From positions 14,944,001 through 15,008,000 of the forward strand of contig OZ076409.1 in the NCBI GenBank assembly GCA_964187785.1: a DNA stretch of 64,000 nt, written 5' to 3'. A model generated the notes under the pieces. That model saw nothing but the letters and a program-made list of their open reading frames with translations. It had not been told where the DNA came from and did no database searches. The position numbers were made by a program, and so were the translations under genes. Of the stretch, positions 1 to 64,000 are shown piece after piece. The stretch is from Amphiscolops sp. MND2022. Lineage: Eukaryota. Each line of letters opens with the position of its first letter. Position 1 is the first letter of the stretch.

Positions 1-2966
1 TAATCACACGCATTCCAGAGTGCTGGGGGTATAATTTTCGTCTGGAAGAATCTTGTTACAGCCTTATTGTCAGTAAGGATTATGACCGGTTTGGGCGCAC
101 CCCAAAATATATGCCCAAATTCTTTGAATGCAAAGTAAATTGCTAGAAACTCCTTGGCGTATATTGACATCTTGATTTGAGCTGGGGTGAAGGTTTTTGA
201 GCCATATGCCACCGGTGCATAGGATTTTCGAAGGGAAGTAAATTTCTGGTTTGGGTCATCTTCTATGAGTACTGCATACCCAGCTGCACCAAAACTTGCA
301 TCAGTCATTAGTGCAATCTGCTTGTTTGGAATGGGTTGTTGTAAGGCCAAGTCGCAGCATTTGTCGAGTGCCTTATTGATTTCTTCAAATTGTTGGACTA
401 ATTCTTTCGATACTAGGACCTTTTCGTCACTTTTCAGCATCTTGTAGAATGGGGCAAGGCGTTCTGAGAGTCTTGGGACATAGTTTCTATAGTAATTCAA
501 GAATCCCAAATAACGTTGTAAAGCCTTTTTCGACTTCGGGAATTTGGTCTTTTCCAGAAAGTTTTGAACGTTTTGCTTTTGGGGTTTAACGCCTTGTGGA
601 GTAATTGTTCGTCCAAGAAAATCAATTTCTCTGGCACCAAAATGGCATTTGTGCATGGTTAACTTAAGGCCTGCTTCCTGTATGCATTTGAATGTTGCTC
701 TCAGGTTCGTCATGAGGTGGTCGACATCATTGGCTGCGATGCCGATATCGTCCACGTACTGGGCACATTGATCCGCTTTAATGACTTTGTCGAGGTATTC
801 CCTCATGAAACTCGAGAATGCGGATAGTGACCGACTAAGGCCTTGTGCCAAACGTCTGTACGCAAATGTACGACTGGCAAAATTGAAAGTCAACATTTCG
901 ATTGAACGTTGGTCGGCCATTGGTAGGCAGTGATATGCCTGAGAACAATCCAATTTGCAAAAGAGTTTCTTGCCTGCCATGTGTTGGGCAGCATCAACCA
1001 GGGTGCTAACAGGATGATTATTGTTAATGTAATCATCAGAGATTAGGTTGTTGATTTTTCTCAAGTCAACCAAAAGTCGTAGCTTCCCGTTTGGCTTCTT
1101 TTGGGCAAATATTGGGCTTGCATACTTTGAGAACGGTAGTGTAGTTATGATGCCATATTTGTGTAACATGGCCAATTCGACTAGAATATCCTCCTTCAGG
1201 TTAATAGGCGCTGGAAGACTTTGACTATAGGCTGGGGAATCGTCCTTGGGCGTCAATTTGACTTTGAATTCCTCATTCATGCCTATATCAAATCGGTGTC
1301 GAGCAAATATATCATGGAATTCTACTAATAGTTCCTCTATTTTCTCCTGCTCTTCGGTATTGAGGGTAGAATCTTTCCAATCAAAATTTTCTAGGATTTT
1401 GGCGCGCGATTCTTCGTCTTTCGTGGGGTCGAGTGTCTCCAGTTCCTGTAAGGCCTGTAATTCTCGGAGGATTCGTTTCTGGATAGGTGTATGTTCCTCA
1501 GGATTTCCAGGATTCTCTGGGGTCGGGAACCAATAGTTTTCAGAATTTTGCGGATTTTTGTTGGTCTTGATGAGACTGCTGACATAGTGGGCTGCTTGCT
1601 CTTGGTCATTTTGTAAAAGGTGCCAGGTTGATGCCGGGTCTACCGGTTTGACGTATTTCATTTGTTCTGGGGTCATGACTGAGAAACTAGCAATGTGGAG
1701 TCCCTTTTTAAGTTTATAAGGGTGATCTGTGAAGTTATTCACTGGTATCATTATATTGCCGTCATGCAAGGTGACCAAGGCTGGACAGAATGTGATATCA
1801 CCTTCTTCATGGAGAAGGTCGCTTGGTTGTAAGATTCCCGTAACAGCATTCTCAGGGTACAATAGGGAATTGGTCCTAATTAGGACTCTGTCATTTGGCG
1901 GAATGGTGATCTCATTAGGGTTGAGAATCGGCTCTAATACATTTGAGTATTTGTGATCAGCTGTTTTGAGCTGCATCGAAAAGAACGGGAAGTTCAGTAT
2001 CCCTTGTCTCATGTCCAAGACTGTATGATTTCTCTGAAGGAACATTAGTCCAATGATCGGACCCGTCAGATGTTCCATGACTATAAATATTTCATGAAAT
2101 TCAATGTCGCCAACTTCAAATTTAAGTTCTATAGTACTTTTGGGCGTTTCCAGCTGCCCATTAGCGACCATGATCTGGAAATTCGGTGGCGGACCTTCTC
2201 GGATAACAGATTGTGGAGATAAGAGACGAATTTTCCGGAGGTCCATTTCTGGAATTGCACTGGACAGAGCTCCAGTGTCAATGAGTCCATCTATGGTCAA
2301 CTCCCCAAAGTCCATGGGGAAGTACAACATGCGCTTCTTGCATTTGAGGTTGATGTTGGTCGACAAGGGTATACAGTCTGGTTCACCGTCTCTGGTGATT
2401 AGGACGTTCTGGATCTGCTTCTCGTCTAATAGTGATTGTGGTGTAGATTCAGAGTTGTCCTCATGGGCCTCGGTCCCCAATGGGTTCGGGAACACTGGGT
2501 GATTCGTGCCATCATTCATCTGCCAGTTTTCAACTAGTGCTCTGGTCTTTTTATTGTGGGTAATTGGAGGGTTCTCGTGGACTGTTTTGTTGTAGTGCTC
2601 GATGTCGTCTAGGACATATTGGAATTGTAGTAGTTCCTGGTTGTAGATCTCTGAGTCCCAATAGGGATCTCTGCCATAATCTGGATCTATGTAGGTAGGA
2701 TTGTAATTGTCAACCAGGGGAATGGGCCTGAATCGGGTAGTGAAGGTAGTAGTGTAATCAGGATCCCAAACAGGAATTGGTTTTTGGAACAAATGGGTAT
2801 TGTTATATGTAATGGTTACTGCTTTGTCCATCTGTTGCTGCCAGACAACAGAGGGGTAGCCCATCAATTGTTGGTTATAGTGGTGGAAAGTTTTTATTGG
2901 AGGATCCGACCTGATGTATTGACGGACGGATATGAGTTCGTTGTATTGGAGTCGTGGCGAAGTTAG
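1..2966 (-). CDS. pol: Pol polyprotein of copy A (protease, dUTPase-like insert, reverse transcriptase, RNase H); runs off the window
   Basis: My manual translation in the -1 frame relative to gag shows no stop. Motifs: LIDTGALSS (~2275), KLDCSQAYH, RLAQGL, QYVDDI (747-758), LMTDAS, YAKEFLAI, LTDNKA. Absent from the ORF track, presumably because its stop lies outside the window. Confidence 0.92.
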
Positions 2967-4657
2967 TTTTTTGACTCATCATTGGAAGATGAGGCCTGCG
3001 AATTGGAAGATGTTGCTCTATTTTGTGGTTTCTGCGCCTTTGAGTTGGGTTTACTATCATTGGCGTCATCTGGTCTGGTGCGTTTAGGCTTAAGATGCGC
3101 ACCGGCGCCTTGCCAACATCTTTCCTCGGGGTGGTTCTTTTTACCACAAGTGCCACACTCCGGATACGTCTTTTTCTGAGTCTGTTTGCCTTGTTGGGCA
3201 TCTTTTTCTTTTTTCTTCTTCAACTTTTCGCAGTCTTTGACCATATGGCCCTTCTCCTTGCAATAGTTGCAAGTGATATCTGACATTTGCCCAGTAGTTA
3301 GAGGAGTCTTGGATTTTGTCGAGGAGGTCATTGTGGCCATTGGTAGGTCGTCTGATTCCTCTAGTGCATTGAGTTCTAATTCTCTCTCTAAATGAGCAAC
3401 TATTTCGTCATAAGAGTCATTTTCTAGTCTGGCCATGTTGACAGACCGCTTCAGTTTTGGTGGCAGCTTTGCGTAGAGCAAGTTGTCAATCATTTTCTGC
3501 GCGTGATCTCCAAATGCTTTTTCTGCCCCTTGATTTAATTCTTCAAGGAAATCTGGTAGTTTCATCGTATTGGGATCAAAGACCAGGCGATGCCATTTAT
3601 GTTTGGCAGTCGCTTGTGATTCGGGCTTGACGTATTTTCGTCTGAATATTACCAATACATCTTCTAAGGTCTGTCTATTGCTCGAACTGATGTTCCGGAA
3701 AGTTTGGAGAGCATTCTTCCTCAGCAGTGAGTGGAAGTGATTTATTTTCATCTGTTCCGTCATTTCCGGTTGCATCTTGATCATCGTGTGGAACAGGTCC
3801 TCAAACAGCTCGAATTTTTCGCTCTTGCCATCAAAAGTCATTGTGTTCGAGTTGACTGGGCGTATAGTGAGTTGTTGGGCCGTCGGCCTATTCTGCATCG
3901 TTGTCAAGACATCTGCTAGTCGAGTAATAGGGTCAGTTTGAGTAGCCGGAGCATTTCTCTCTTGCGTTGGGATCGTCGTGTCAAGGTTGATGTCCTCATA
4001 GGACTTGTCGAGATGGTTTCTGGATGAGACTCGTCCCGTGAGAAACTCAGGAACTTGAGGTGGAGATTCGTTGTCTCCTGTCACCATGTCGTGAGCATTG
4101 CGATATGCGTGGTCACATTGTTCATTGATCAAAGTCGTTCTGGTCCTGGTATTTTGCTGAACTTCGGAATGATTTTCCGGTCTCTCAACTGGGACCTCCC
4201 ATCCCCTTCTAGTCTCACGGCCCGATCCGGCCATTAAGGCATTTTGAATCTGAGGCAATACCTGACTATTTATAGCCTCATTAATGGCCCTTTGGATCTG
4301 TGAGCTGACATTATTGAACATGTCATCCATCTCTCTCGAGATCCTAGAGTTTAATTCACTTGACAACCTGTTTATCTCGGCTTGAGAATCTAGGCTTGCT
4401 GAGTTATGGCCATAACCGGCACTTGTCCCAATTCCAAGGTTCTCATTTTCTGAATGAAGATTTGTTTCCTCATCCTCCAAATTATTACTTGCAACGCTAT
4501 TTTGTCTCCTAATGGAGGTCCCGTTAAGGCTGTTATCCCTCCCTGATCCGTTGAAATGGTTCTCGCCTAGCATAATATCTAGATTTTCGATGTCCGAGAA
4601 AATCTCTAATCCTCTAGATTTTCTTGCCTTCTTTTGCTTTCTAGTGGTAGGCATCAA
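2963..4657 (-). CDS. gag: Gag (564 aa) of copy A, with two CCHC zinc knuckles
   Basis: ORF with CNYCKEKGHMVKDC and CGTCGKKNHPEERC and a capsid-like region FDGKSEKFELFEDLF; lies directly upstream of pol. Confidence 0.93.
   Translation of the reverse strand: MMPTTRKQKKARKSRGLEIFSDIENLDIMLGENHFNGSGRDNSLNGTSIRRQNSVASNNLEDEETNLHSENENLGIGTSAGYGHNSASLDSQAEINRLSSELNSRISREMDDMFNNVSSQIQRAINEAINSQVLPQIQNALMAGSGRETRRGWEVPVERPENHSEVQQNTRTRTTLINEQCDHAYRNAHDMVTGDNESPPQVPEFLTGRVSSRNHLDKSYEDINLDTTIPTQERNAPATQTDPITRLADVLTTMQNRPTAQQLTIRPVNSNTMTFDGKSEKFELFEDLFHTMIKMQPEMTEQMKINHFHSLLRKNALQTFRNISSSNRQTLEDVLVIFRRKYVKPESQATAKHKWHRLVFDPNTMKLPDFLEELNQGAEKAFGDHAQKMIDNLLYAKLPPKLKRSVNMARLENDSYDEIVAHLERELELNALEESDDLPMATMTSSTKSKTPLTTGQMSDITCNYCKEKGHMVKDCEKLKKKKEKDAQQGKQTQKKTYPECGTCGKKNHPEERCWQGAGAHLKPKRTRPDDANDSKPNSKAQKPQNRATSSNSQASSSNDESKN
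2966..2972 (-). promoter_or_regulatory. -1 ribosomal frameshift slippery heptamer A AAA AAC at the gag/pol junction
   Basis: TCA AAA AAC TAA ends gag and pol opens in the -1 frame. The same heptamer occurs in B (19757-19763); CAAAAAC occurs in E (26498-26504). Confidence 0.85.
4075..4086 (-). promoter_or_regulatory. Primer-binding site TGGTGACAGGAG, copy A
   Basis: Starts with TGG immediately after the LTR-terminal CA. The identical 12-mer occurs in F (62571-62582) and a variant in E (25387). Confidence 0.75.
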
Positions 4658-5791
4658 GATCGAACCGAGTTGAAATATTGAATTCGTAAACTCAGAAATT
4701 TAACAGTGTAACCGTTTTGATATTTACTAACATGAATCAAAATGAAATTGTGTCTTCCCCAAGCGGGGTAGTAGTATATATACCGCACGGGGAATGACAA
4801 GCACATTTTTTACATAATTAGCAAATCACTTGATTCCATACCTCACAGGGAAATCCCCGACTAATACATTTTTTAGGGGACAACTTAGGAATGGAATTCA
4901 TAGACCGTTTATCTAAACACCAACATCAAACAACATGTCGGCTAGCATCGTGACAATTATGGTGTAAACAAACTTCACTGCTTACATATTTTACAACTAT
5001 GCAAGGTGCAGGCACGTGCCGACACAAGTTCATTTCATAGCATCTTCATAAATGGAATGCATTACGGAATTCTAATAATGTAGCTGTATTCTCAAAGCAC
5101 TATTTTCAATGAACGCCCGAACAGGGACTAAGTCCATAACATGTACAGCACGAATAAGGGGGCATGGAAAAGAGGTTAAATTATCCCCTTTTGTTAGGCA
5201 AGCAACAAGATTATTTAAACTACAAATGCGTATTAAATAGCTCCGGATAAATATTGGCTCATTTAAACAACAAAGGAAATATTATATCAGAATAGGCCGA
5301 AACCGGCCACTTGACTAAAGGGCCATTATTAGAATAGTACCGTTCAGGCAATAGGCCTTATCCGGCCATTATAAACAAAGCATTTATAATTAGCAACAGG
5401 GGAGTGCTGTGATTGGTCAGCGGCCGTACCGAAAGTCACATCGCCGAGAAGGGACGTTTTCTCACTTGAACACGTTTCCTTCTCGCGATTAACTTGCTTT
5501 TGCACTTTACCGCTTTTCACTACAAATTAACACGTCGTTATACTGCACAGTATCTACATTCTAATACAACATCTCAATTTGGATTTTCCAAATTGTAATT
5601 TAACAGACTAATATAATGCACCAATATATAAAATACATCCGGTTAACTAGAAAGTTGACAAAAATAATGATCCAATAACTATAAGTTTTAGTCAAAAGAG
5701 TTTTAAAATGTTGGAAGTGTACCTGGGGCGATATCTTGGCCCACTGCTGTAGTCGTTATAGGAGTTCCGTCACAGGCGGCAGCCTGCGACA
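4087..5791 (-). repeat. 5' LTR of copy A (1705 bp)
   Basis: Termini TGTCGC...CACGACA (TGTCG/CGACA inverted). Both boundaries are homologous to the TSD-defined LTR ends of copy E. Confidence 0.8.
5406..5416 (-). promoter_or_regulatory. CCAAT-box-like motif (ACCAATCACAG) in the LTR
   Basis: The same ACCAATCACAG occurs at an equivalent LTR position in E (~23979 and ~36130) although surrounding sequence has diverged; CCAATCAG occurs in B (~21613). Confidence 0.45.
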
Positions 5792-5950
5792 CTAGATAAA
5801 ATTCTAAGAAACTTTCCTAGCTGGCAAAATTTTGTATTCGTGACAGTCTATGAGATATTTGGTTTTGAATTTTGCCATTTTAAGCAATGAGGTTGCGATA
5901 TTTTAGAACGCTACTATAAGCTGCGCAAAATTCAAAAAGCTTGAAATGAC

Positions 5951-6454
5951 CTGCGATTGAAGCGACGGAGTCTATGATATTTTTCGAACACCTTTTCCCT
6001 GAAATCTCTCCATTCCACCACTGCCACATGTTAGATATAACGGCGTAACTTAGTTGTACCGCGACAAGCGTGATACCCACAACTTTTCCTCCAACTTTGT
6101 TCGCAACTTTTCCTGCTTCTGTGAGGGGTGCGAGGAGCCAGCTTTTGGGCAGAGACTCCAGGAGAACGATAAACTGCCCCATTTGTTCACTGGGTATAAG
6201 ATGAAACGCTGCGGCCACTCCATTAAGAGTTTTCTCATAAATTGGGTCCGGTTCAAACTCTCTGAGGGCGTTTTCATCAATGAATGCTCTATTATCTTCA
6301 TATGCCATGTAGATATCTCGCATCATGTTAGCATAAAACCAATCATTTTCCGCCCTCTTGGTGTCTTTGATCAGCTGATCAAGATACGGTTTGAGAACTT
6401 CTTCATTGCCAATGTCAATCAATGACACAAGGTAATCTCTAATGGTGGCGGGGG
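5951..6454 (-). CDS. Probable internal exon of a host gene (504 nt, phase 1-1); product uncharacterised
   Basis: Stop-free frame bounded by acceptor ggtttcag| (6455) and donor GCAG|gtcatt (5950). Protein-like sequence includes WQWWNGEISGKRCSKNIIDS, which from memory resembles invertebrate proteins with a C-terminal J domain (unverified). Confidence 0.6.
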
Positions 6455-7637
6455 CTGAAACCAAACTACTTTTCGATTTAAAAAAAACGCCTTTGAAAAC
6501 CCATTGTAAACTCTTTCTTGCCCGATAATGATTTCTTTTTCAGTTCCAGACAGCCTCAATTTATTACTTCGGGGGAACTTCTGGGAATAGCAAAAAGAAC
6601 TCCTAAACCTCCTGTTTCAAGCCTGAATCGCTAACTACATTCCACAAATTGAGGTACAATGAAACTCAAGAAAACAAAACAATCATTTTGAAGTGTCTTC
6701 ACCTAGCTTGTTTGATTGCGATTAAATTTCGTGACCACATTTGGAGCCAAATTTGAGATATGAAGCTTTAAACAAATTCTTCGACTTTGCATTTTTTTTG
6801 AGATTTGTCGAAGAAATAGCGAAAAATGCCTCGTTTTATTGCAAGATAACGAATTTATTCTTCAGGCTCCCTTCCCAAGGAGCGTGAGAATTGTTCGAAA
6901 GGAATTATTTTGGTAATTTTAAAGAGAGAGTAAAATCTTTGGTAGTAAATTGACACCTTGCGACTTCTTCTTCGAACAAGTTTTTTTTCGAAAAATCTCA
7001 ATTTCGAACTTTTTGTGATAATTTCAGTTAAGAAGAGTTTTTAATTCTTGAATGCCACCTTGGAAATGTTCTGATGCAGTATTATATATAAAAAATCGCA
7101 GTGTCACTGCGTTTCTTGTTTCTTTCTACCTAATTTTTGCTAATAGGTATTAGATAGATGCTGGTGGAAAGCTAAAAAGCACTTCGCACTTTTATAGTTT
7201 ATTGATAATTTCTCGGATATCTCTGTGTGGTGGCGTTGGGGGGCTGTATTTGTAAAGTGGAAACAATTTCCAGACAAACTAGCTTTTTTTCCAAAAAATG
7301 CTTTCCAAAAATTGAGCTTTCTGGGTTTTCCGTTACAAAAATTTGTTCGAGTCTCAGGAGTGATCTCCTAAGATATTTGTTTGTAGGGCGTGATGGAGGA
7401 TGGAGGATTCTGTTGTAATTGAGCTCTAAACGGGGCACTCACCCAAGGCTTTTACGTGGTTTTATCAAGAAATTGCATCTTTGAAACCCAAAATGTTCTC
7501 ATCTTGCATTTTCGGCACTGTGCAACTTACAAAACCAGTCTTCTTTGGTTTTCTTAACGTGTCAAGCTAGAGAAACGTCATTTTTTCTATTAACAAGAAC
7601 TGTAAAATGCCCCCAGGTGCGCGAAAGAACGCATATG

Positions 7638-8764
7638 TGTCGTGATCTTTGTCACTAGATTGGGAAGCTATAGAGTTTCCTCTAAAGTAGTCGTGTTGCC
7701 TACCGTTAGCCAAAGCAGGCTTTGAGTTAGTTTTCCAAGCTTCTCTAGCTCTTTTCTCTTCCGCGGTCCTGCTTAGTCCACTGGACCTGTGGTCCACTTC
7801 TTCCCGAAATACAGGATTTTGGCTTATCACGGTATTTTGACTATTCCAGAGGACTTTCTCACTGAATATCTAATATATAGTGTCCGCTATTTGAGTATTC
7901 TAGTCTCTTTTGAAATCATCTATCTTCTTGGAGACTTCGGAATTCACTAGTCTCATAGTCTTGATGGTAATTTCACTGTTTCTTTTACTATTTGAATTTA
8001 AAAAAGATCGGAAGCAGTTGTTATTTTGTATTATGTCTTGTCTAGTTCTGTCGGAACCAGAGTCCACTTCATCATTCAAGTTTCCTGAATTGCTATCTAA
8101 CTCAATCCTTGAATAAGAAGCCAAGATTACGTCTACATTTTCTATATCAGACATTAGGTCCACTTGTCTAGAGCGTCTTTCCTTTGCTTTTTTTCTAGTT
8201 GAAGGCATTGGGAGAAATGCTTTGCAGGCAACAGTTTACTGCTGTATTTATCAACAAACTGAACAGGATATCAACAAACTGAACAGGATACTACAGTGAA
8301 CAATTAATTCTATTTAAAAATTCTAACAGAAATACGATGGGGACTACGCGTCCAAGTTGACTAAGCGAGACATCACTTCGAACGCGTTGCCTTTCCACTC
8401 TACAGTTGTTTACTATTATATTCACAGCTAATTCAGCTAACTTTTTATCATTCGACATTCTGATTTGCATGATAATAATACATAACAGATATATGAAATA
8501 AATATGAACTGGATGTTACATGTAAAATAATGGGAGATGATTTTTAGGGTTGGTCATACTTAGGCAAACGGACCAGTAGTCCATATGTTAATAAAATGTC
8601 TTTGAAAGCAGTATATAACTACTAGGAACTCGCAAGAAGTGTTTGAATGCTGACCGACTGTCCAAAGGCTTACAGCGGCAAAACTCCTGGGGGCAGTGCG
8701 TAGTTTGATTGTTCGTTAGGGGTTACTTCATGATCATTTCCACCACAGGCGGTCGCCTGTGACA
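7638..8764 (-). repeat. 3' LTR of copy B (internally deleted relative to the 5' LTR); carries a gag N-terminal fragment
   Basis: Begins TGTCACAGG and ends CACGACA; matches 22033-20690; contains the MPSTRKKAKERRSRQ ORF (8208-7900). Confidence 0.85.
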
Positions 8765-10734: not shown

Positions 10735-13700
10735 ATGGATTTTCATAGCGGAAGTGGATTGTATGAATTTATTTCCTTCCGTTTAAGCAAAGAAATGAGT
10801 GACCAGCCGAATCAAGCAACACTGGAGGACGTAGAGAACAGGTCTCAACATAACGAGCAAGCTCCCGGAGCTGAAGTCTCCGGACGCCCAGTGGACACAA
10901 GGTCCGAAACCGAGTTGACCTCAACCAGCGATACAGAAAGCTGCTGGACGTATTTCACCAGGAAGATGGAGTCTTTAGGTGCAGAAGACCCAGTTACCGC
11001 CATAACTGAGGAACAATTCTCAGAACGCGATGAAGCCAGCATCAGCGATTCCGTGCCCGTCACTCGTGGGGTTAATTTCTTTGAACTCGCAGAATCCCCA
11101 AATGAAAATCCACCAGAAGTCACCTTTCTGGAGTCGTCAACAGTAGTTCGCGGGTCCACTGAGTCCGGCCCAGGACAAATGCCAGGCGAAATGACTGGTA
11201 ATCCAGGTTACAACTTGGAAACCAGGTCTGACGATAGAAGAGAAAGAGGAAGCGAACAGAGTACCACGGAAGAGTCAAATATTGGTGCTGAACGAAAAGA
11301 CTATCGGTGCAATACCAGTATTCTCCGAATTGTAGCAGATGAGAGTGCACCATCGTCATTTGGGATGTTCAATAGCAAAGTCCAACGGGCTAGCCAATTG
11401 AGCCTTTACGATCGATCTAGAACTCCACCTAGGGGGCGGGCGCAAAGGAGTCTTGCTGCCGACGCTAACACTGGTGTCGACGTCAATTCCTCCTTGAACT
11501 CCGACGTCCAGGGTGAAAGTACCAGTCAGGGATTCACCAGCGATCCTGATTCCCATCATGATTTCCAATCCTCAGTCAATCTTGCCTCCCCACCAACGGC
11601 TATCGCCATTGGAAGCAGAGACTCTGGGACCACAGCATCGACGTTTGAGTGCTTCAGTCCAGGAGCTCAGACCCTGGCAAACTTCCAACAGGAAGCCCTC
11701 AGACAGAAAAGGAAAGCCTCCAAGAAACCCAGCGGAGCCCACAAGACTTCCAGACACCCCAAGCCCTGCAAGCCAATCGGGAGAGTTATGAGACAAGAAT
11801 ACTTTGAGAGTATGCCGTGGACGCTTACCTTCGTCTCTGGGTCTATGGGTCCCAAATGGAACAAGCACAAGATTTATTGTCAAATATACAAGTGCAATGT
11901 CTCCATTCGTGCTAAGGGACCCAAAGAGATCCTGCGACACTACGCTACCGAGAGCCATCTCCGCAAAGATCAACGGTGGAGATATGAGTACCTAACCACC
12001 GGGGACCCCGTGACCAAGAGAACGCGCTATCATAAGAGGGGAAGGGACGGCAAGGTACTGACCAACTACCAAGTGCAGCTCGAACTGCCCCACTTCATTA
12101 AATCCGAGCTACTGGACATCGGGGAGAATCTCCCCTTCTACGAGGAAGCGATGACAGGAGAGGATCACATGGCGGCATCTCCCCAGAAAATGGCCCGGTT
12201 GCGAAAACATTCATCTTGGGACACTACCTCCCCTTGTCTGGAGACGTTATTGTCCTTCGCACTCTCTGGCAGCATACTGGAACTTTCGTGAACCACCAGG
12301 CGCTGTTTTGTGACATTGACTGGAGTACCACCAGACTCTCAGTAAGTATTCCCATCTACACGCTATCAGGCCAGGTCCATTGCATGGCACATGTAGCTAA
12401 GTGAATCCTATTAAGGGCTTCCTTAGGCAAAAGTACTACTAGTCAACTGGTGAAGCGCGTGCTAATTGAACCACTCTATTGGGGGTTCAACTTGACCACA
12501 GATAATTGCAGAAGTGAATTTCAGGTGTGGCTTCATCAGTTGTTCCATCAAATGATTCCAAGTTTGGAAAACGACATCCTTTATGAAGGACAACTTTCCA
12601 CCGAGTTCGAACCCCAAGGCGTGTTCCACCATCTGCACGTTCGCTCTGAGAAGGAAAACAAGCTGTGCAGGGTCTACTTGCTCCGGACGGGCCGTACCGG
12701 TGGACAGACGCCGGCTGAACTGCGGCTGCTGTCGACTCTCCTCGCGGCTATTTCAACTGAAGTTGATCTGGTGTATTGCTGTGGGGGTTCCTTCAACATC
12801 GTTCAATTGTTAGACATTTCTCCGCTGTCCGGACATGGGGTCTAGCGCCCTGCTACCTTTGATGAGATTTCCACCAAGAAGTTGATGCATAAGGACAGAC
12901 ACAGCGTGTTCGGTCGTATAGACTTCTTTTCCGTCCTCCATCCTCCATAATCTTGTTATCTCTTTGGGAGGCAGTGTTCAAAAGGAGTGGACTTTGTTTA
13001 CCCCCGAACTAGTCAAAATTAGTACCTTTTACTTTTCAGTCTGGCTATTTTCCAACTCCAGAGATTGTAACTGTGTACGGTTTTGTGGATATAATTTCGC
13101 CATTCCTCAAAAGTGCATTTTTACTGAATTCATCACTAAAATTAGTCCTGGTAAACAACTCCATTCTCCATGTTTAGGCCAAGAAGTCGAGCAAACTAGA
13201 CGTTTTCTCTGTGCCAGCCCTCTGCCAAGAGTTGATCACTCACTGGAAGTCAGTCACATCTTTTCTGTCTGCCCGTGCCGTCCCAGAGCAAAAGCAAGGA
13301 GTGAAAAATCAGGTAGGGCATTCTTCATCCGGTGTACTCACGGTCCCTTTCTTAATTTGCGCAACGAGTTCTTTCATTTTAGCCACAAAGTCTAGAGTGG
13401 TCAATCATCCACGATGATTTCTTCACCTGTCATTGGGAACTCTTCCACAAGCTAGTCCGCGATTGTTAGTAATTGACATGTTCCAAGCTAGCATATATAT
13501 TTTGTTTCTATAGGCTCAATTAATGTTGTCCTTAATAGCGTTATCACGATCTTTCAACGCATTATTCCCTTTGTGACTCCTGGTATTGGCATCCTTAGTT
13601 GTACTAGAATCTGCTGGGTAATTCCCCGTAATCAAAGGTTCGTACAGCGTTTGTTCTTTCGCTTAGATATAACCAACTTCTCTCTCAGCATCAGCGGACG

Positions 13701-14809
13701 TCGAGACCGAGGCTTCCATACATATAGACAATTATGTCTGTACCTCCGCAAGGTTGCAAAGAGAGTGGTGCTGCCGAAATCTCTGCCTTCCGAAGACGAC
13801 TTCGACGGGATCTTTGACCTGGACATCTTCGTTGCCCCTTCTCTAAGTGTCACCGTCTTCCTCAATCGGTTGAAAATCGGACCCAAGTTGGACCACGCGT
13901 GTAAACTGAAGGCAGAGGTTGAACAACACGAGAAGAAAGGGGAGAAGTCAACTCTTGAAGAACTGACGAGCAAGGCCAAAGAATATTCTGGCAGACTGGC
14001 GAGAAGCTACGTCACCCACCTCTTCAAGGAGACCAGAAGTCATTTAGACTTCGCAACTTTAATAGCTCAAGGCTTGGGAAGTTTTGATTTAGAGATTCTC
14101 CTAAAATTGCCTCTTACTCTTGCCATCAGGTGTTACAGTAAGCTGTTCACATCTTTTAGACTGCGAGGCTATTTCTCAATGGACCAGGAATTTCAAGCGC
14201 AGGAAGAATACTTGTCTTTCCTCGACGAACTTCGGGTCAAGTACTCTGAATTTGATCAGCCAATCTTCTAATTCCTGACGCTATTGACTTTATCATTGGG
14301 GAGGCGGCGTTACATGCTCGTTCATTGTTTCAGCATGCTTTGAGCTTGCTTGTCTTTGCCTGGACGAACCATTCCACCCCTTACTTGATGTCAAGTTCGG
14401 TCGTGTCAACACCGAGGACCTTACTATCAAGCTGGTCGATGTCGTCCTGCCGGTCCAGTCTTTCTTTAGTAACGTGGTAAGCTGTTTTGATACTGCCACA
14501 AGCGATACCTCCATTGCAGATATCCTTGAGCTCGAATCTACATTCGAACGGAGTGCCCTAAGTGACACATATGACCCTTGGTTGGGTTTGGATTGCTTCG
14601 GGCGAACGGAGATTCTGTCCAAACTCGATAGAGAAAGCAAGTTCCAGAGCAAGCCCAAGAAGGGAAAATCTGGCAGATAGTCGAAAATTCAGCAATGCCT
14701 CAGTACTCTCCTTTTTTCCAAGAAGCACGCACGGCCCACGCAACTTTTGTCGGAGGATGAGATTAGCCAGAGTGCTAAGAGTCTTCGTCCATGCAGTAGT
14801 AAAGACTAA
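10735..14809 (+). pseudogene. Antisense, intron-containing accessory gene of copy B (low-complexity N-terminus, zinc finger, possibly hAT-transposase-derived body)
   Basis: 518-aa ORF with IYCQIYKC...RHYATESH plus downstream fragments. GT-AG introns at 12342-12524 and 13313-13513, acceptor at 13177. Ends PCSSKD* (14807-14809). Colinear homologue in E. Confidence 0.8.
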
Positions 14810-19757: not shown

Positions 19758-21052
19758 TTTTTTGTGTTTTTTAAGATAGAAGTTTAGTGTTTAATATTGT
19801 TATCGTTTTGGCCTGGGGACGTATCTTGCTATTTTGCGTCCTCCAATTTGAGGTTTTCTGCTTGAGGTGGGCTCCGGCGCCTTTCCAACACCGTTCCATC
19901 GAGTGGTTCGTTCTGCCGCATGTCGGACGATTTGGATATTCTTTCTTGGTATCCTGCCCTTCGTTGCGTTTTTGTTCCTCCTTTCTTTTGAGTTTTCGGC
20001 AATCATCTTTGACGTGTCCGGGTTTTTGCAGGAATTGCAGGTAATATTCGGGTCAATGCCGGAGATAGGAGGCCTGTTCCCGGTCGTGTTGCTGTCGGGG
20101 CAGTGAACATTGTGGGGACTGGAATGTCGTCACCTTCCTCAAGTCCATTAAGCTCCAGTTCTCGTTCCAGACGGGTACCGATTTCTTCGTATGAGGCGTT
20201 CTCCAGTCTTGCCATGTTCATTGACCTTTTGAGTTTTGGGGCAATTTGGCGTATAATAGGCCGTCTATCATCGCCTGGGCGTTTTCACCGAACGCCTTTT
20301 CTGCACCCTGATTTAAGTCTTCAAGAAAATCCGGGCAGCTTCATAGTGTTTGGATCAAATACCAGTATATGCCGTTTGTGCTTGGCAGTTGCCTGGGATT
20401 CTGGTTTGACGTACTTTCGCCGGAAGACCGCTAGAACATCTTCCAGAGTTTGCCTATTAACAGTGCTAATGTTGCGGAAAGTTTTTAGAGCTTTTTTCCG
20501 TAATGGAGAATGAAAATGACTTATTTTCATCATTTCCGTCGTTTCTGGCTGCAATTTTATCATGGTATGAAAAAGGTTTTCAAAGAGTTCAAATTTGTCC
20601 GACTTGCCATGAAACATCAGTGTAGTGGTGCTGAACGGACGTACTATCAGTGTTTGTGCTGATGATTTGCTGTTCATTAGCTAAAGTAGGAGGACTTTCT
20701 CGCTGATTATCGATTTTATAGTGTCCGCTATTTGAGTATTCAAGTCACTTTTCTTTTCATCTAATTTCTTGGAGACTTCGGAATTCACTAGTCACATGGT
20801 ATCGATGGTAGTTTCACTATTTTCTCTACTATTTGAATTTAAAAAAGATCGGTAGCAGTCGTTATTTTGTTTTATGTCTTGTCTAGGTCTGTCGGAATCA
20901 GAGTCCACTTCATCATTCATGTTTCCTGAATTGCCCTCTAACTCATTTCTTGAGTGAGAACCCAACATTACTTCTACATTTTTTATATCAAACATTAGGT
21001 CCATTTGTCGAGAGCGTCTTTCCTTTGCTTTTTGTTTTCTAGTTGAAAGCAT
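19754..21052 (-). pseudogene. gag: gag of copy B, frameshifted, with an internal deletion near 20690 that removes the LTR end and PBS
   Basis: MLSTRKQKAKERRSRQ start; fragments RRKYVKPESQATAKHK and LERELELN; ends AAAAAAC TAG. Confidence 0.88.
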
Positions 21053-22033
21053 TGGGAGAAATTCTTTTCGGGCAACAGTATATTGCTGTTTTTATTTATC
21101 AACAAACTGAACAGGTTACTATACAGTGGTCAGGTAGTTCTATTTCAACAATAGGTTCAACAGCTGGATTGCGACCGTAGGTCAATTGCAGTTTGTAGCA
21201 CGTGAATATCAGAGATGAGTATTGTCAGGTGTATAATCAATAATGGTCCTGTGATCTACGTGACCCCCGTATAAATACTTGGAAAAGCTTGACAAGAAAG
21301 CACGTTTCCTGGTGTCGCGCATCTAAAAATAGCATCGAACTAGAAAAATGTCTTTGCGGACCTTACGTCGTAATTACATCATTTGGCTATAAACAGAAAT
21401 AGTCTGGGTCGCGAACGGGTCAAACTAGTGAAGGGGGGCGTAAAGGCGGCACGGTTTTCAAGTCTCATATTTGGAATTTATATTTATTTACCAAAGTATT
21501 GGCTAGTGTAAATATTACATATACTTCCAGCTAAGGACCAGCGGTCTAAATAGCTAATGATGGAGAAGAAAATTAGCACTCTAGAACTACGCGAGAATGA
21601 ATGCTAAGCGCTGATTGGATAATACAATGGCTGAGCGAGACATCACTTCGAACGCGTTGCCTTTCAACTCTACAATTGTTTACTACTATATTCACAGCTA
21701 TTCAGCTAATTTTTGATCATTCGACATTCTGGTTTGCATGAAAGTAATACATAACAGGTGTAAGAAATAAAGATGAACTGGATTTTACATGTAAAATAAT
21801 GGGAGTTGATTTATAGGGTTGGTCATACTTAGGCAATCGGACCAGTAGTCCTTACGTTTATAAAATGTATATGAAATCAGTATATAACTACTAGGAACTC
21901 GCAAGAAGTGTATGAATGTGGACCGACTGTCCAAAGGCTTACAGCGGCAAAACTCCTGGGGGCAGTACGTAGTTTGATTGTTCGTTAGAGGTTACTTCAT
22001 AATCATTTCCATCACAGGCGGTCGTCTGTGACA
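20690..22033 (-). repeat. 5' (shared) LTR of copy B, 3' end deleted
   Basis: Begins TGTCACAGACG at 22033; aligns with 8764-7850. Confidence 0.82.
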
Positions 22034-22230
22034 CTCCCCGCGGGACGAGAACAAATGAAGCCGCCCGCATTCCTGCTTGAAATGCGTCTCTCCTGTGTTG
22101 TCTGGTCTCGTATGATTCTCCCGCTTGGTGAGTTCTTTCCAAGTAGTCAAAGACAACTTCTTCGCCTATAATATCTGCTGTTTTCCCACAGACCATACAG
22201 TCGCCCCGTTGGAAAAGATTCTGTTCCCTG
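21939..22230 (-). pseudogene. Second copy of the ORF4 C-terminus, upstream of and overlapping the 5' LTR of B
   Basis: GDCMVCGKTADIIGEEVVFDYLERTH...PPGVLPL*; closely matches 8960-8670. Confidence 0.8.
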
Positions 22231-22604: not shown

Positions 22605-22838
22605 AAAAACGTACGCGTGAAAACGAAGTGATCGCGGCGGTGAAGAAGTGGAATTGTTTTCAGTTTTAATTCAAATAGTGGAGGCTGCATTGTAATCCTA
22701 CAACATGTTTCTATTCGGAATAGAAACATGTTGTACATGTTGTAGGATTACAATGCAGCCTCCACTATTTGAATTAAAACTGAAAACAATTCCACTTCTT
22801 CACCGCCGCGATCACTTCGTTTTCACGCGTACGTTTTT
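22605..22838. repeat. Long near-perfect palindrome (112-bp arms, 1-nt centre, 9-bp duplication in the right arm)
   Basis: 22605-22716 is the reverse complement of 22718-22838 once one copy of catgttgta is removed; centre ctattc-g-gaatag. Confidence 0.95.
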
Positions 22839-23656: not shown

Positions 23657-25386
23657 TGTCGCAGGCTTCCACCTGCAATGGAACAATCATCACGACATCG
23701 GCAAACGGACAAGACGTCGCACCAGGAACAATTCCTACATTCTAGTGTTGAAAATGTAACATTTCCATGAAAAAAATCCTTAGTCAATTAAAGATTTTGA
23801 TATGGTACTTTGTATTAGTCTCTTAACTGTTGCTTAAAAATGCTGATTTAGTTTTTGTAGGTGATGTAAATTAGAATGAATTAGAATGCAAGCAATCCAA
23901 TTACTGTACGCTGTAAAGGAAACGAGTTCAAATGTTAAAACGTCTCGTTTCGGCGACGTAGTTCGTTCCCTGTTATTAACCAATCACAGTGCAGTATAGC
24001 TAGTATTATCTTTCAGCAATACATTATTCGGCTGGTTATGGCGGCTTGCCTTGATCGAAATACTACGCTTACGGACGCTGGTTCACTGGCCAATTCCGGC
24101 CTACTTGGTTTTTATCAAACAATCTGTGTTGTTTAACTTTTAGTGCAGTGCATTTCTTGGGAAGTGCTTGTAATTGTCTTAATACGCCATATGTAGTGAT
24201 TAAAGATGTTAAAGAAGCGGTGTTAATTGTTTTATTTAAACGATTAAACCCAAAGTCCAATTTGATTGGAGCATGACTTTATTATCCGTTTCTTGTATAT
24301 TGGCCAATTTGTGACAAGATTGCGAATGAAACCCATGATAGTAGAAATATTTGACCGGACATATATTTGTTTACAGGATTGAATGTAAAATGGAATGTTG
24401 ATGCGTATTTCTAGTACAGTTGAAGCTTTATTGCCATAAACAGTTGTTGCTATCTGTGAACTAGGAATGATTTTCCTCTTGACCATACACTAACAGGACA
24501 AATTCCTGAATTGCTTTGATGAAATTGTTGCCGCTAACAAATATTGATTTGGTAGTGTTCCGCACTGGTCAAGTGCTTTTTAAAGAATTTGTAAATAGTT
24601 AGGTTGATATGTAAAGAATGTGAGTGTCACCCTCTCTCTCAGAAGTATATTTTCTGGAGTATTCTTCTGGAGAGGGACACAATTTTTGCACGTCTTCTTT
24701 AGTTCAGCTTGGTAATATAGTCATTTAACTATACAACTTTCCAAACTTTGTTTTCCGAACAAAATAATTTAGTATTTTTACTCGGATTCTCCTCAATGCC
24801 TACTACCAGAAAGCAAGAGAAAGCTAGGAAGTCTGGGGGACTAGAGATGCTCTCTGATATTGAGAATATGGATATAATGATCCATGAAAATCATTTTGAC
24901 ACGGTAGAAAGAGAGGAAATTTTAAATAACACTTTTGCTAGAAGGCCTGAAATTGCTAATAGTAACAACCTTAACCATGATGATGAAAACATGTATTTGA
25001 ACCCAGGAGTTTTCAACTAAGGTGCTGACGCCGATCACGGCCGACACTCAGCAAGTGCCAACTCTAGTGCTGAGAATAATACATTGTCGAGTGAGTTAAA
25101 CTCGAGGCTTTCTAGACGTTTGTATGAAATGATAAGCAGTGTTATTAGCCAGATCCAGAAGGCGATTAGTGACGCAATTAGCTGCCAAATAGTGCCTCAG
25201 TTTCAAAATGCCCTAAATTCCGGATCGGGCCGTTTGACACAGAACGACAGAATGGATGGAACGTTCCGGCTGAGAGACCGGAAATTAACCCCGAAGTATA
25301 CCGCAGTGACAAAACTGAAAAAAACTCAAAAAGTGAGCCAATTGGTGATCGTCTTAACGACGATATCACACATCAAGCTTACAACA
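23657..25386 (+). repeat. 5' LTR of copy E (1730 bp)
   Basis: TGTCGCAGG...TTACAACA, followed by the PBS-like TGGTGATCGGAG; direct repeat of 35805-37023. Confidence 0.9.
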
Positions 25387-34806: not shown

Positions 34807-35893
34807 AATGGACAAATTTGATAGGCAAAATCGTTTTGAGAGAAATGATGACGGGAGTGATGAAGGGTAAACACCGGAATATCAAAGGCCGCTGACCATT
34901 GATGGAATTCCATTCAGAAGAGTTTACCCCGACTTATGAAGACTACCTGAAGTTATTACCGCCGAATTGGATATCCCTGGAAAAAGGCCTTTCTCGGCTC
35001 ACTTCGAGCAGCTTATCAGTTTCATTCTGATTGAAACTTTTTTCCACTCAGATGCATCGTTAAATTCTAAATTTGCTAAAAAGGATATAATGCAGAAGTT
35101 TAACTTGTCTAGAAAACTTTCGACTTTGAAGAACAAGACTCCAATCATTCAGCAAATTCAGTCACATACATTACTAGCGACAGTGAGGAAGAAGTCTCGG
35201 GTTCCTGGGATTCTGGAATTCGGACTGGTCTACGGACACAGAGGCGCTAATCAACAGGATAGAGCATGGAGTTAAATCGAACCCAATCCTCATTGGGGGA
35301 CGTGCCATGACTGTGGAGGGACTTGACGGTGAGATGGTGGCTTGTCCAAGTAACTCACAGCCGGGTCCGTCCTCTACCCCGAAACTGGTCCTGTAGTACT
35401 TCGAGAAGAAGCTGTGCTTTGTGCCCTCCAGAAACGTAGAGAAAGCAAAATAGAGCTTTGCAAGAACTTGCTTCCTGTCCTACAATCCCCCATGTCACCA
35501 CCTTCCCATGAAAGAGGGCCCGTAAAGGAAACGCGGTTGGCCCCGTTGCCACAACCGGCTAATTCCGGGTTCAGCGCTTCATATAATGTGCAAGACACGG
35601 TGCCTTACGAGAACGTCAGCAAGAAGATGTACACAAGCTGCATCGTTTGTGGGAGATCAGCTGACGCTATCAAGAGAGAGATGGCAGATGAATTTATAAG
35701 GAGATCAACACCAAGAGGTGAACTGGACTACGTCACAGCAATGAGGAAGGAAGCTTATTTAAATGGACTGAAAGCATGGTCGTTTTTATTTATTCCACCC
35801 GCACGGTCGCAGGCTGCCACCTGCAATGGAACAATCATCACGACATCAGCAAACGGACAAAACGTCGCGCCAGGAACGACTCGTACATTTTAG
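34807..35893 (+). pseudogene. 3' sense accessory ORF (ORF4) of copy E, ending inside the 3' LTR
   Basis: Fragments include the 159-aa ORF with SCIVCGRSAD...SQAATCNGTIITTSANGQNVAPGT; homologous to ORF4 of B. The start is approximate. Confidence 0.7.
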
Positions 35894-37023
35894 TGTTAAA
35901 ACTGAAACTTTTCCATGAAAATAATCCTTAGTCTATTTATACATTTTGATATGGCACTTTGTATTAGTCTGTTTACTGTTGCTTAAAAGTGCTGATTTAG
36001 TATTTGTAGGTGATGTAATTTAGAAATAATTAGAATGCAAGCAATCCAATTACTGAACGCTGCAAAAAAAAACGAGTTCAAATGCTAAAACGTGCCGATT
36101 CGGCGACGTAGCTCGTTCTCTTGTTATCAACCAATCACAGTGGAGTATAGATAGTATTATCTTTCAGGATTACATTATTTGGCCGGTTATGGCCTCTTGC
36201 CTTAATCTAAATACTAGACTTACGGACGCTGGTCCAATGGCCGATTCTGGCCTACTTGGCTTTTATCAAACAATCTGTGTTGTTTAATTCAAAGTTCCGT
36301 ACATTTCTTGGAATGTGCTTGAAATTGTCTCAATACGCCATATGTAGTAATTAAAGGTGTAAAAGAAATGTAGTTAATTGTTTTAATTACACGAAAAAAA
36401 CGCCATGTTCATTAAGATTGAAGCATGACATTATTATCCGTTTCATGTATATTGGCCAATTTGGGACAAAATTGCTAATAAAAGATAGTAGAAGTATTTA
36501 AACGGACATATAACTGTTTACACGATTGAATGTAAAATGGAATGTTGATGCATATTTCTACTACCGTTGAAATATTGTTGCCATAAACAATTATTGCTAT
36601 CTGTGAGCTAGGAATGAATTTCTTCTTGACCCTCACAGGACGAATTCCTGAACTGCCTTGATGAAGGTGTCGCCGCTAACAAATAATAATTTGGTAGTGT
36701 TCCACCCTGGTCATGTGCTTTTTAAGGAATTTGTAAATAGTTTGAATGATATGTGAAAAAAGTGAGTGTCACCCTCTCAGGTTAGTACCCAGATCCAAAG
36801 GGCGATTAGTGACGCAATTAGCAGCCAAATTTTGCCTCGGATTCAAAATGTCTTAGTACGGATTCCGGATCGGGCCATTTGACACTGAACGGATGGAACA
36901 TTCCGGCCGAAAGACCGGAAATTAACCCCGAAGTATACCGCAGTGAGAGAACTGAAAAAAACTCAAGAAGGGAGCCAATCCGTGATCGTCCTAACGACGG
37001 TATCACACATCAAGCTTACGACA
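35805..37023 (+). repeat. 3' LTR of copy E (~500-bp deletion near 36781)
   Basis: Aligns to 23657-24640, then jumps to ~25140-25386; ends TACGACA followed by the TSD. Confidence 0.9.
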
Positions 37024-42450: not shown

Positions 42451-42540
42451 AAAACTTAACCATATGGGCATCTCCAAAGCTCGTGCCCCAAAAAAAACGT
42501 CACCATATGGGCATCTCGCAAATCTCGAGCCCCAAAAACA
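42451..42540. repeat. ~40-bp minisatellite (2 copies) inserted in one satellite unit
   Basis: ccatatgggcatctc...cgtgcccc repeated; same motif as 56363-56487. Confidence 0.85.
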
Positions 42541-56362: not shown

Positions 56363-56487
56363 AAAACGTCACCATATGGGCATCTCGCAAAAGTCGTGCC
56401 CCGAAAACGTCACCATATGGGCATCTCGCAAAATTCGTGCCCCAAAAACGTCACGATATGGGCATCTCGCAAAGCTCGTTCCCCAAA
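56363..56487. repeat. ~40-bp minisatellite (3 copies) capping the satellite array
   Basis: aaaacgtcaccatatgggcatctcgcaaa..tcgtgcccc x3. Confidence 0.9.
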
Positions 56488-61333: not shown

Positions 61334-64000
61334 TGTCATGCAATACGCGCCGATTGCTAACAATCGATGCTGTTACCCACACAGCACTACCAGACAGAAA
61401 GTATGAATGAAAACAACGGAACACACGAGATTCACGAAGTGACGCCACTAAGTGCACAACGTCACAAGGCCAGAAAGGAAAAATGAAAGAAAACGGGACA
61501 TAGATTGATGCAATTGATTACACAGCTTTAACAAATAAACGCAAACATTCTACATGAATAAATTATAACGTGACTGTAATACATGCATCCTTTATACATT
61601 TATGCAAAATAATTTATTTCCATCAAATCCATTTCCGTTGCTTGTTGTAGTTGTATCGAATACATACTTTATACATTTACGCAGAATAATAATCTCTATT
61701 TTCATCAAGTACATTCGCGGTGTTTGAGTTAGTTGTGTTGAATACGTCAAATCAAGTGCCAAAAGTGTTTGTAATACTATAGTACGCAGCCTTGCTTAGT
61801 CCATAATTTGTCATTTACCCAATGTTAGTGATGCATCATCATCATTTAGTCATTTGTATTAGCCTCAACGTTGGGGATATAACATGATCTATCTCTAGTA
61901 CAAGTGCAATTATTTCACATATATTATTCATTCGTATTATATAATGCTTCATGAAACCATAGTAACGTACCATCACTGCACTCATACCAATAGACGCAAT
62001 TGCGCTACCAAACACAAGGTGCTAATTAACACCAAGAAAATAACGCAACAGGATTGGCTAATGAGGTCACGTGACCAACATCACCAAACTCAACAGCAGG
62101 CGCCACCACGCAGCCATTAACTTTTACTTTACTATAACGTGCAGTTACCAACTACATCATTTTTTTATACCAAACTTCATTTCAAAATCAATCTAAAAAC
62201 CATCCTTCAACAACTCAATTAAACTTTTAAAAACTCCAATTTTTCTTTATGCTTAACACGAGATCTCAATTAGCGAGAAATAATTCAGTAGATATGAGCG
62301 GAATGGATAGAGATAGTGATGCTGAGAGTGAAAGCAGTTTGCCCGAGATCCTCGCGAGAGATCAAACAAATGAGTTCGATAATGGCGACTTGTTAAAAAA
62401 CCAGAACGATACTGAACGACATATACTATACCAGCGTTTCTCTGAAATAAACAAGCAGATCAACGAACTAACAAACCTAGTATCGGCCTTAACGAAGAAG
62501 ATATTCTCTAGCAATAGAGAAAGGAACGATTTAAACAGTGTCTCAAATAGACACGAGACACGTTCCAACGTGGTGACAGGAGCTTCAACAAGCAATGTCC
62601 AGACGAACCTACTGCGTCCATCATCATCACACTACACTCAGCCACCCGCACACTAAATTGACGACATAGTAACCAAAATCCAACACCTGAGAAATACCAT
62701 GACGGATTCTGTACATCATCCGAAAATTCTCCAGACCCACGTTCCACTTTTCCGAGGGAACCGGGAGAGGCATAACCATACTTCCAGAGCCTGCTACGTG
62801 ACGACGCCATCAAATGCTGGCAGTCACGAAAAAACCAACCAAAAAACTCTTGCCCAAGTTTTGCGTTACTTCAAAAATGAGCATGCCAGAGAAGACTTGA
62901 AAAAAGTGACCAAATACAAGTTTGGCCAGATCCGCAATGACCCTTCAGCCGAGACGTTTAATGACTTTCTCAACAAATACAAGAAGGTGGCAAAACAAGC
63001 ATTCGGGACCAGATCAGGTGACATCACAGAGACCTTTTTGTTTGCAAAACTCCTCCCGGCCACATCAAGTGCCCAACTGTTAAATCAGATTAGCTCACCC
63101 CATCCACCAATTGCCACACCGCGGACTTCCAATTCCCAACCGCAACAAAACAGGGAAATCAAAAGGAAGTTTGATGGACAATGCCGTCATTGCGGCATAC
63201 ACGGGCACAAATGAGCAGAAAGTAGAAATAGACTTCGAGAAGAAAAGGAAAACAAATCCGCGAACCCAAACTCGCAAACCGCAACCCAGTCCAACCCAAC
63301 AAACGAACCAAAACCCAAAAACAACTCCAAATTGGTATGCCAAATTTGTCGAAAGGTGGGACATTCAGCCCGAGACTGTTATTACTGGAATACGGGTACG
63401 TCAGCATACCGAAGCGTCCTGTACCCTAAACAGTCAACGAAGGAAAATAAACAGATTCAAAGGGATTTCATACACACCAACAATAGGGTCTACAATACAA
63501 ACCAAACGAACTGTCCCACGCAGCACATGACGAAGCTGACAGTAATGAAAAAACCGAAAAACACGATGACGTAGAAGATCCAAAAAATTTCTGCTTAAAC
63601 CACGTCATCCTCCTCAATTGAACGAAAGTGCGCGCTAAAATCAACAACTAACCACTTCAAAACAAACTCGACTGAAGACTTCAAACAAACACGGGGTGGC
63701 AGTCCCGTGCCTCAACTTACACAAAGGAAACAACAAACTTTGTCATTACAAGACATTCGACTGACAACTACACCTTCCGACCGAAAGAATACAACTGACG
63801 ACCCGAAGTCAACAATATGGAATTGTTACCTCAGAACAATGACTCGGGTAACGAAACTAACGAAGCTAAACAACCCTCATTCCCAAAACCAAACCCACGG
63901 AAGAAAACCAATTACGAAAACCGCCCGTTGAGTGCTACCCTGCAACTCAACAGCGAAGACAGGATGTTATACGTACCACTCCAATTCCGAGAATACAAAA
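61334..64000 (+). mobile_element. Decayed, more distant Gypsy-type element, copy F (5' part)
   Basis: gag fragments with CRHCGIHGH and CQICRKVGHSARDC; PBS TGGTGACAGGAG at 62571; the window ends in PLSATLQLNSEDRMLYVPLQF, homologous to the pre-protease motif of A. The 5' boundary (TGTCATG at 61334) is tentative. Confidence 0.8.
62249..63600 (+). pseudogene. gag: gag of copy F, with stops and frameshifts
   Basis: ORF pieces 62249-62656, 62699-63214 and 63332-63574; two knuckle remnants. Confidence 0.8.

Follow-up and report, generated by a model that had tools for sequence, protein, structure and literature searches.

Gag of the yeast retrotransposon Ty1 reportedly overlaps its LTR by about 13 codons. 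In Saccharomyces cerevisiae, the primer binding site (PBS) of this element lies inside the GAG ORF, at RNA nucleotides 94-104, as described in the available part of PMC4974528. The 5' UTR of Ty3 consists of R and U5 with the PBS segment adjoining, according to the same partial text (PMC4974528). The usual layout of the PBS is described in PMC5006619. As a rule, U5 is short and carries no code, and the gag start lies past the primer site. In Cer1 of C. elegans, the capsid of a gypsy-type Gag is preceded by a long coiled-coil region at the N-terminus, the element has an additional 3' ORF, and Gag shares exons with a spliced accessory protein (PMC10309623). The Cer1 primer is tRNA-Pro, and the available parts of PMC10309623 and PMC3315495 do not place its start codon in the LTR. 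In HIV-1, intermolecular strand transfers produce breakpoints at U3/R and at the PBS (PMC5651808). These HIV breakpoints fall outside gag. A domain-sized gag/LTR overlap was not found in the literature searched; older subscription papers were beyond reach, and a precedent may exist. Older reports on the Drosophila elements Ulysses and Osvaldo may offer precedents for such an overlap.

The elements described here break this usual division. Their gag frame is already open within the 5' LTR, 107-198 codons short of its end, and is under protein selection there, so we consider it likely, with a rough probability of 0.84, that U5 encodes the whole N-terminal module (N-module) of Gag and that the tRNA-Leu primer site falls in the middle of the gene. 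Ty1 already shows the principle; what sets these elements apart is the larger scale, a folded module predicted in U5, coding frames at both LTR junctions and the swapping of modules by strand transfer. As in Ty1, the PBS of the A group lies within the gag ORF and cis signals overlap gag codons, the start is in frame inside the LTR, and the frame stays open across the PBS. The strong-stop DNA of Ty1 is under 100 nt, whereas that of the A group would reach ~690 nt, about seven times as much, and 107-198 codons with a predicted folded module are involved across the families here. The elements also differ from Ty1/copia in belonging to Ty3/Gypsy, in their tRNA-Leu primer and in a second frame across the U3 end; integrase followed RNase H in element A, in contrast to the Ty1/copia order with integrase before RT. 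The order PR-RT-RH-IN, the TG...CA LTRs, the 5-bp target site duplication (TSD), the capsid fold resembling PNMA2 and dArc, and the likely -1 shift between gag and pol resemble Ty3/Metaviridae. Unlike in Ty3, U5 is coding here, and the A group departs from the Ty3/Gypsy standard by having no polypurine tract and, in a 16-kb element, extra sense and antisense ORFs. Cer1 resembles these elements in the coiled-coil region ahead of the capsid and in its extra 3' ORF. In contrast to HIV-1, the two breakpoints in one lineage (L234) bracket the first third of Gag.

The window, the whole stretch of 64 kb that was analysed, contains pieces of several related LTR elements, namely A (minus strand, 5' end at 5791) and the decayed B, E, and F. 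Searches covered the 1.07-Gb eukaryote assembly containing the window. Element A is a Ty3/Gypsy element of ~16 kb, and these elements are recently active Ty3/Gypsy retrotransposons. The 3' LTR of A (L031) lies ~10 kb beyond the window, differs at 3 positions from the 5' LTR and is flanked by the TSD TCTAG. The features of A in the window, all on the minus strand, are as follows.

5792..5796, minus strand: 5-bp TSD TCTAG, with its partner outside the window after the 3' LTR
4087..5791, minus strand: 5' LTR, 1,705 bp, TGTCG...CGACA, 3 mismatches to its own 3' LTR
5703..5791, minus strand: tail of ORF3 in the 5' LTR, last 28 codons and stop; ORF3 spans the internal/U3 junction
4775..4783, minus strand: TATA box, 127 nt upstream of the gag ATG
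4745..4760, minus strand: putative transcription start (U3/R border), 20-35 nt past the TATA box, in agreement with the left breakpoint of L234
4723..4728, minus strand: AGTAAA, candidate variant poly(A) signal, which would place R entirely upstream of the ATG
2963..4654, minus strand: gag ORF, 563 aa, with N-module, capsid (about residues 265-435) and two zinc knuckles
4087..4654, minus strand: LTR-coded Gag N-module, 189 codons, with basic N-terminus, acidic linker, long helix and linker
4229..4402, minus strand: predicted amphipathic helix, residues 85-142, pLDDT 72-84 over residues 91-140, predicted to self-associate as a coiled coil
4075..4086, minus strand: PBS TGGTGACAGGAG, 12 nt complementary to tRNA-Leu(CAG) plus CCA; (A)TG GTG ACA GGA G reads M-V-T-G
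2966..2972, minus strand: A AAA AAC heptamer at the gag end with pol in the -1 frame, a likely frameshift site for a putative shift
1..2975, minus strand: pol with protease, RT and RNase H; integrase continues outside the window

Pfam matches in the sequence gave the order PR-RT-RNase H-integrase. The best PDB matches of the RT were foamy virus RT (E 1e-29) and Ty3 RT (E 4e-24), neither of which assigns it to a clade. The model of the Gag capsid region had a pLDDT of 81, and its best Foldseek rows were the PNMA2 and dArc capsids (E 0.008-0.08), with no row at E<=0.001. Among 57 relatives, 12 matched Retrotrans_gag in Pfam, and the zf-CCHC match was below the cut-off.

Searching the genome with the DNA of A returned 40 matches, of which 27 covered the full query and 13 ended at query base 614-617. 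The 3' ends were retrieved for all 27 full-coverage matches, and each was paired with a 3' LTR. All 27 pairs had LTRs of 1,700-1,713 bp with TGT...ACA ends, a 5-bp TSD and 0-6 mismatches between the two LTRs. The repeat ended with ...GACA at HD|MVTG within gag in every one of them, and the 5' LTR was followed directly by TGGTGACAGGA(G/C). Thus the LTR end that the earlier note had placed at HD|MVTG was borne out with TSDs in all 27 copies, and its claim that the Met of MVTG is made of the terminal A of the LTR and the TG of the PBS held when read across the junction. The same note had put the gag start 571 nt inside the LTR of A; the location inside the LTR stood, and the distance was corrected to 568 nt (189 codons plus 1 nt), since the ATG is at 4654 and position 4657 belongs to an upstream TTG. 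Among 12 further pairs from other subfamilies, 11 had a TSD, and 568 or 586 nt of gag were inside the LTR where this was read. The twelfth pair (L236) was left out since the 3' LTR fetched was not its own, and L236 was also dropped as a second mosaic.

The LTR-coded stretch of gag is protein under purifying selection, as judged from its pattern of substitution. In an alignment of 20 relatives, conservation was seen in the basic N-terminus and in a helix block; a variable linker separated the two, and another linker followed ahead of MVTG. The dN/dS was 0.14 for codons 1-189 against 0.04 for the codons after them in 8 natural subfamily copies (0.06-0.18 in 19 unsaturated pairs). The value is approximate, since dS had reached saturation in the other 9 of the 28 pairs and the copies were related mosaics picked for open frames. 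Differences at codon positions 1, 2, and 3 numbered 1127, 1184, and 2625 in LTR-coded gag, and 104, 12, and 451 in codons 1-33. No in-frame stop was present in the 8 copies, compared with 9-32 in the other two frames. A test of indel phase was set aside because the copies had been chosen for open frames. In family A, which was found by DNA search, the frame was open in 25 of 27 5' LTRs and in all 27 3' LTRs. Inherited variants in this family comprised 30 synonymous and 16 nonsynonymous changes, whereas differences between the paired LTRs of single elements comprised 9 and 19, respectively (26 of 27 elements; Fisher p 0.008); 20% of sites are synonymous. The earlier note had named translation from the MVTG ATG with no coding constraint upstream as a refuting outcome; the dN/dS of 0.14 and the synonymous excess among inherited variants showed that the constraint is there. 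No stop separated the N-module from the capsid in 96 of 103 loci, a proportion biased by the many loci that came from a protein search. One group had just 177 open codons. The ATG context of the A-group gag was weak (T at -3), and an upstream ATG was present in the leader of 3 of the 8 copies.

The PBS paired with tRNA-Leu(CAG) over 12 nt in 24 of the 27 A copies and over 11 nt in the other 3. The tRNA 3'-end pattern complementary to the PBS had 964 matches in the genome, compared with 0 for the reversed control. ARAGORN called tRNA-Leu(CAG) at 2 of 8 loci inspected, where the gene end was the complement of the PBS. A tRNA search that preceded the pattern search found Lys/Arg arrays and no Leu genes; the Leu genes came from the pattern search. 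Codons 189-197 of gag, around the junction, were identical in every base in all 8 subfamily copies. Synonymous sites were frozen at 25 of 36 invariant-residue columns in gag codons 181-240, compared with 10 of 70 in codons 1-180. The overlapping constraints that had been proposed for this short stretch (att site, PBS, and protein) were thus visible as frozen synonymous sites at the junction. In this clan, which has many young copies, one stretch of bases at the 5' end can serve at once as att site, tRNA primer site and protein code. The frozen stretch corresponds to about 3935-4114 of the window (minus strand) and may mark a cis signal, possibly for packaging, that extends ~150 nt beyond the PBS; mosaicism may contribute. 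A 231-nt segment spanning the PBS folded as RNA no more stably than shuffled versions of it (z -0.03), and no hairpin is claimed.

The layout of U3, R, and U5 was read from the promoter and from mosaic copies. A TATA box was located 127-136 nt upstream of the gag ATG in all 8 subfamily copies, although their U3s were otherwise poorly alignable. AGTAAA or GATAAA was seen by eye ~70 nt before the ATG in 7 of the 8 aligned copies. Up to position 1060, the element L234 agreed with L238 at 101 of 104 informative sites; across 1076-1758 it matched L241 at 60 of 62, and beyond the LTR it returned to L238 at 96 of 101. Since both of its LTRs were mosaic and a TSD was present, L234 arose in reverse transcription. 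Its left break (1061-1075) was at the start expected 20-35 nt after the TATA box and its right break was at the PBS. Breaks at these two places are the described signature of intermolecular strand transfer between two RNAs (PMC5651808, partial text). On this evidence R plus U5 would be 683-698 nt in L234 and about 665 nt in A, the U3/R breakpoint being taken from this one well-resolved lineage. The long strong-stop DNA that the earlier note had proposed, and with it a long R-U5, was supported indirectly by the coincidence of TATA box and breakpoint ~100 nt upstream of the ATG.

The mosaics were not confined to L234. When 94 copies were clustered by U3, by R-U5, and by the gag after the PBS, one gag cluster (96% or more alike) was paired with at least four LTR types, which were about 70-85% alike. 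Three amplified lineages of 8, 9, and 8 copies differed by a swap of R-U5. L208 had a whole LTR of one type, with divergence starting right after the PBS. These pairings, together with L208, show that the Gag N-module travels with the LTR and not with the capsid. The obligatory strand transfers thereby probably become a shuffling of Gag domains, visible in the amplified lineages. The amplification suggests that the chimeric Gags are functional, with help in trans being possible. The 3' LTR frames had no stop of their own and ran 1 to over 100 codons into host DNA, and among 120 short database matches listed, 105 lacked the junction motif, as expected of frames in 3' or solo LTRs. Annotation and dating that assume neutral, non-coding LTRs will mislead in this genome, and so will gene prediction where 3' or solo LTRs yield "genes" of 190-250 aa.

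Four other explanations were weighed. The strongest concerns where the border between R and U5 lies: the frame would be coding, but R would be long and cover most of it, so that strong-stop transfer would be early and U5 proper short. No conserved AATAAA that would mark the R/U5 border was found in the 8-copy alignment, and the parent switch in L229 and L235 was less sharp, lying between 1076 and 1190. However, R plus U5 would still be ~690 nt and coding, the whole 1076-1758 stretch of L234 came from one parent, and in 7 of 8 copies the candidate AGTAAA or GATAAA preceded the gag ATG; we regard a long R as unlikely. Somewhat less likely still is that selection keeps the LTR frame chiefly for an accessory protein made by splicing, whose first exon it would form, with a donor near the LTR/PBS junction and Gag proper starting from MVTG. 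Cer1 offers a precedent, its CERV sharing exons with gag (PMC10309623, available part), ATG|GTGACA resembles a weak splice donor, the 3' ORF could serve as a splice partner, and the Met of MVTG is invariant. That Met is, however, forced by the CA of the att site and the TGG of the PBS, ORF3 has a Met and an N-terminus of its own, and the open path from module to capsid in 96 of 103 loci (biased, as stated, toward protein-search hits) argues against it. Such an exon could also coexist with an N-module translated as part of Gag.

It is very improbable that the upstream frame is non-coding LTR, open by descent or chance, with translation from MVTG. The frame was broken in some copies and in young lineages, and gene callers started 8 distant proteins at MVTG; but the third-position bias, a dN far below dS, the synonymous excess among inherited variants, the absence of in-frame stops in the 8 copies against 9-32 in the other frames, and the conserved helix all speak for a protein. 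A repeat boundary produced by segmental duplication, gene conversion or assembly is harder still to credit, and was rejected. It drew on the rearrangement of B and on the TSD of E, which begins with TGG like the PBS, and it is contradicted by 27 of 27 independent insertions, which are spread over many contigs, carry different TSDs and have the boundary at the same base. The reading in which U5 encodes the N-module thus remained the preferred one.

The other elements of the window and their relatives extended the arrangement beyond family A.

23657..25386, plus strand: 5' LTR of decayed E, with 591 nt of gag inside (ATG at 24796); preceded by the TSD TGGAT, 23652-23656
35805..37023, plus strand: 3' LTR of E, from which an internal stretch of ~500 bp that includes the gag start is deleted; followed by the TSD TGGAT, 37024-37028
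61334..62570, plus strand: 5' LTR of decayed F, from a distant family, with 322 nt of gag inside (ATG at 62249), junction phase unchanged
7638..8764, minus strand: 3' LTR of decayed B, with a broken MPSTRK... gag N-module ending at HD|

The earlier note had estimated gag starts ~590 nt (E) and ~320 nt (F) inside the LTR, close to the 591 and 322 nt measured. It had also fixed the boundary by the TGGAT TSD of E, together with the points where the 3' LTRs of B and E stop matching; the TSD was present, but is insufficient alone as TGGAT begins like the PBS, and the boundary was fixed by other copies. It had named LTR boundaries upstream of the gag start as a further refuting outcome; they lay downstream of the start in every family tested. 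The E copy carried one stop and one frameshift in LTR-coded gag, and B in the window was a rearranged, decayed copy. B-like elements had TSDs in 6 of 7 pairs, with 198 codons inside the LTR in L140; F-like elements had TSDs in 2 of 4 related pairs, with 107 codons inside. In a third family with 2.4-2.5-kb LTRs, a TSD was found in 6 of 10 elements fetched, and 132 codons were inside in 8 of 10. The junction is common to these three distant families, which have between 107 and 198 codons of gag in the LTR. Among 38 representatives at 50% identity with at least 70 residues before the capsid motif, an MVTG-like motif was present in 25 and absent in 13. The 25 proteins had unrelated N-modules, mostly basic at the start, and 8 of them had been called from the MVTG Met itself. 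The N-part of one protein (P0273) gave no match in this genome; the clan may reach another genome, or the search missed it. A young 8.2-kb family (L142, L147, L150, L153, L154, and L156) had near-identical LTRs and a gag open from about codon 15 only; a stop at codon 14 was read in L142 and L147, and the shortened frame was common to the 6 copies. This family is probably non-autonomous, and lineages without a full N-module probably spread in trans. The upstream LTR of B (window 20690-22228, minus strand) had ORF3 sequence before it, as for a 3' LTR, and its gag was joined through a deletion that removed the PBS junction; this arrangement is a tandem or recombined copy.

The full-length Gag model was poor apart from one helix, with a mean pLDDT of 40.6. 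When three copies of residues 80-165 were folded, the only number of copies used, the predicted trimer scored 0.75 compared with 0.01 for the best control, with contacts agreeing at least 72% and pLDDT at least 72, although coiled coils may score through likeness to solved ones. Among microbial proteins, 21 of 30 pairs but none of 23 single chains attained this mark; the eukaryotic figures were 17 of 29 and 0 of 30. The N-module is predicted to consist of a basic tip and a self-associating coiled coil, with a likely role in oligomerisation or targeting.

In the proposed mechanism, Pol II would start ~100 nt upstream of the gag ATG, just past the conserved TATA box. Ribosomes would initiate at MPTT..., read through the att site and the PBS into capsid and nucleocapsid, and then shift by -1 into pol. 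Reverse transcriptase primed at the PBS would copy about 670-690 nt of R-U5, including the gene of the N-module, before the first jump. Because both strand transfers bracket the N-module, co-packaged RNAs would recombine and the N-module, alone or with the whole LTR, would be swapped against the capsid core. Each 3' or solo LTR would keep the promoter and a stop-less 189-codon frame leading into host DNA. A further, speculative and rather doubtful possibility is that the LTR acts as a portable cassette for a Gag domain: strand transfer would routinely re-pair N-modules and cores, 3' and solo LTRs would express truncated coiled-coil Gag with random host tails, and these products would restrain capsids of the same LTR type by co-assembly. 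If true, copy number would be limited from within, much as by p22 in Ty1; this control would make LTR types turn over rapidly, and new host genes could arise.

The 3' end of the element was also coding. In HIV, nef is a 3' ORF overlapping U3. ORF3 here was a 259-aa sense ORF, acidic and with a CxxC motif, which ended 28 codons inside U3 in 12 of 12 copies read (L054:4533-5354, plus strand; window 5703-5791, minus strand, and 35354-35893, plus strand), and a Pfam search with it gave no match. Nine codons at its junction (P-A-V|S-Q-A-A-A-C by alignment rows) were identical in every base in 8 of 8 copies, while the neighbouring codons varied. Since ORF3 crosses the U3 start and gag crosses the LTR end, both LTR junctions lie within coding frames, and the att site at the 3' side is carried in this second ORF. 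No polypurine tract was found before the 3' LTR of the A group (27 of 27 and 12 of 12), where a fixed CCCGCAG was present instead; B-like and some F-like copies had a short purine run there. In L031 and L259-L270, a pyrimidine-rich run ending in CCCGCAG adjoined U3; it is similar to a splice acceptor as well. Between integrase and ORF3 lay three ORFs antisense to pol, of 689, 201, and 389 codons (L044:1254-5534; window 10735-14271 and 30226-33743), and a similar frame was present in the distant family. One of the three had a C-x2-C...H-x4-H finger and one a C-terminus that are reminiscent of BED fingers and hAT transposases. When env-like ORFs after pol were sought, the four extra ORFs, ORF3 and the three antisense ones, had no convincing Pfam match.

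Several other features of the genome and the window were observed. Very large tandem tRNA arrays were located at G000:C8:35587000-35637000 and C7:5230000-5338000, and most of the listed Leu-pattern matches fell in one array; the Lys/Arg tRNA arrays of this genome contained anticodon variants. In the host flank next to the LTR of A (window 5880-6539, minus strand), a frame of 219 codons without a stop had no Pfam match. A near-perfect palindrome of 234 bp (92%) was located at 22605-22838 of the window, between B and E, and a tandem array at 38027-56449 consisted of ~17 units of ~1,064 bp that are 90-96% alike and show an internal periodicity of about 355 bp.
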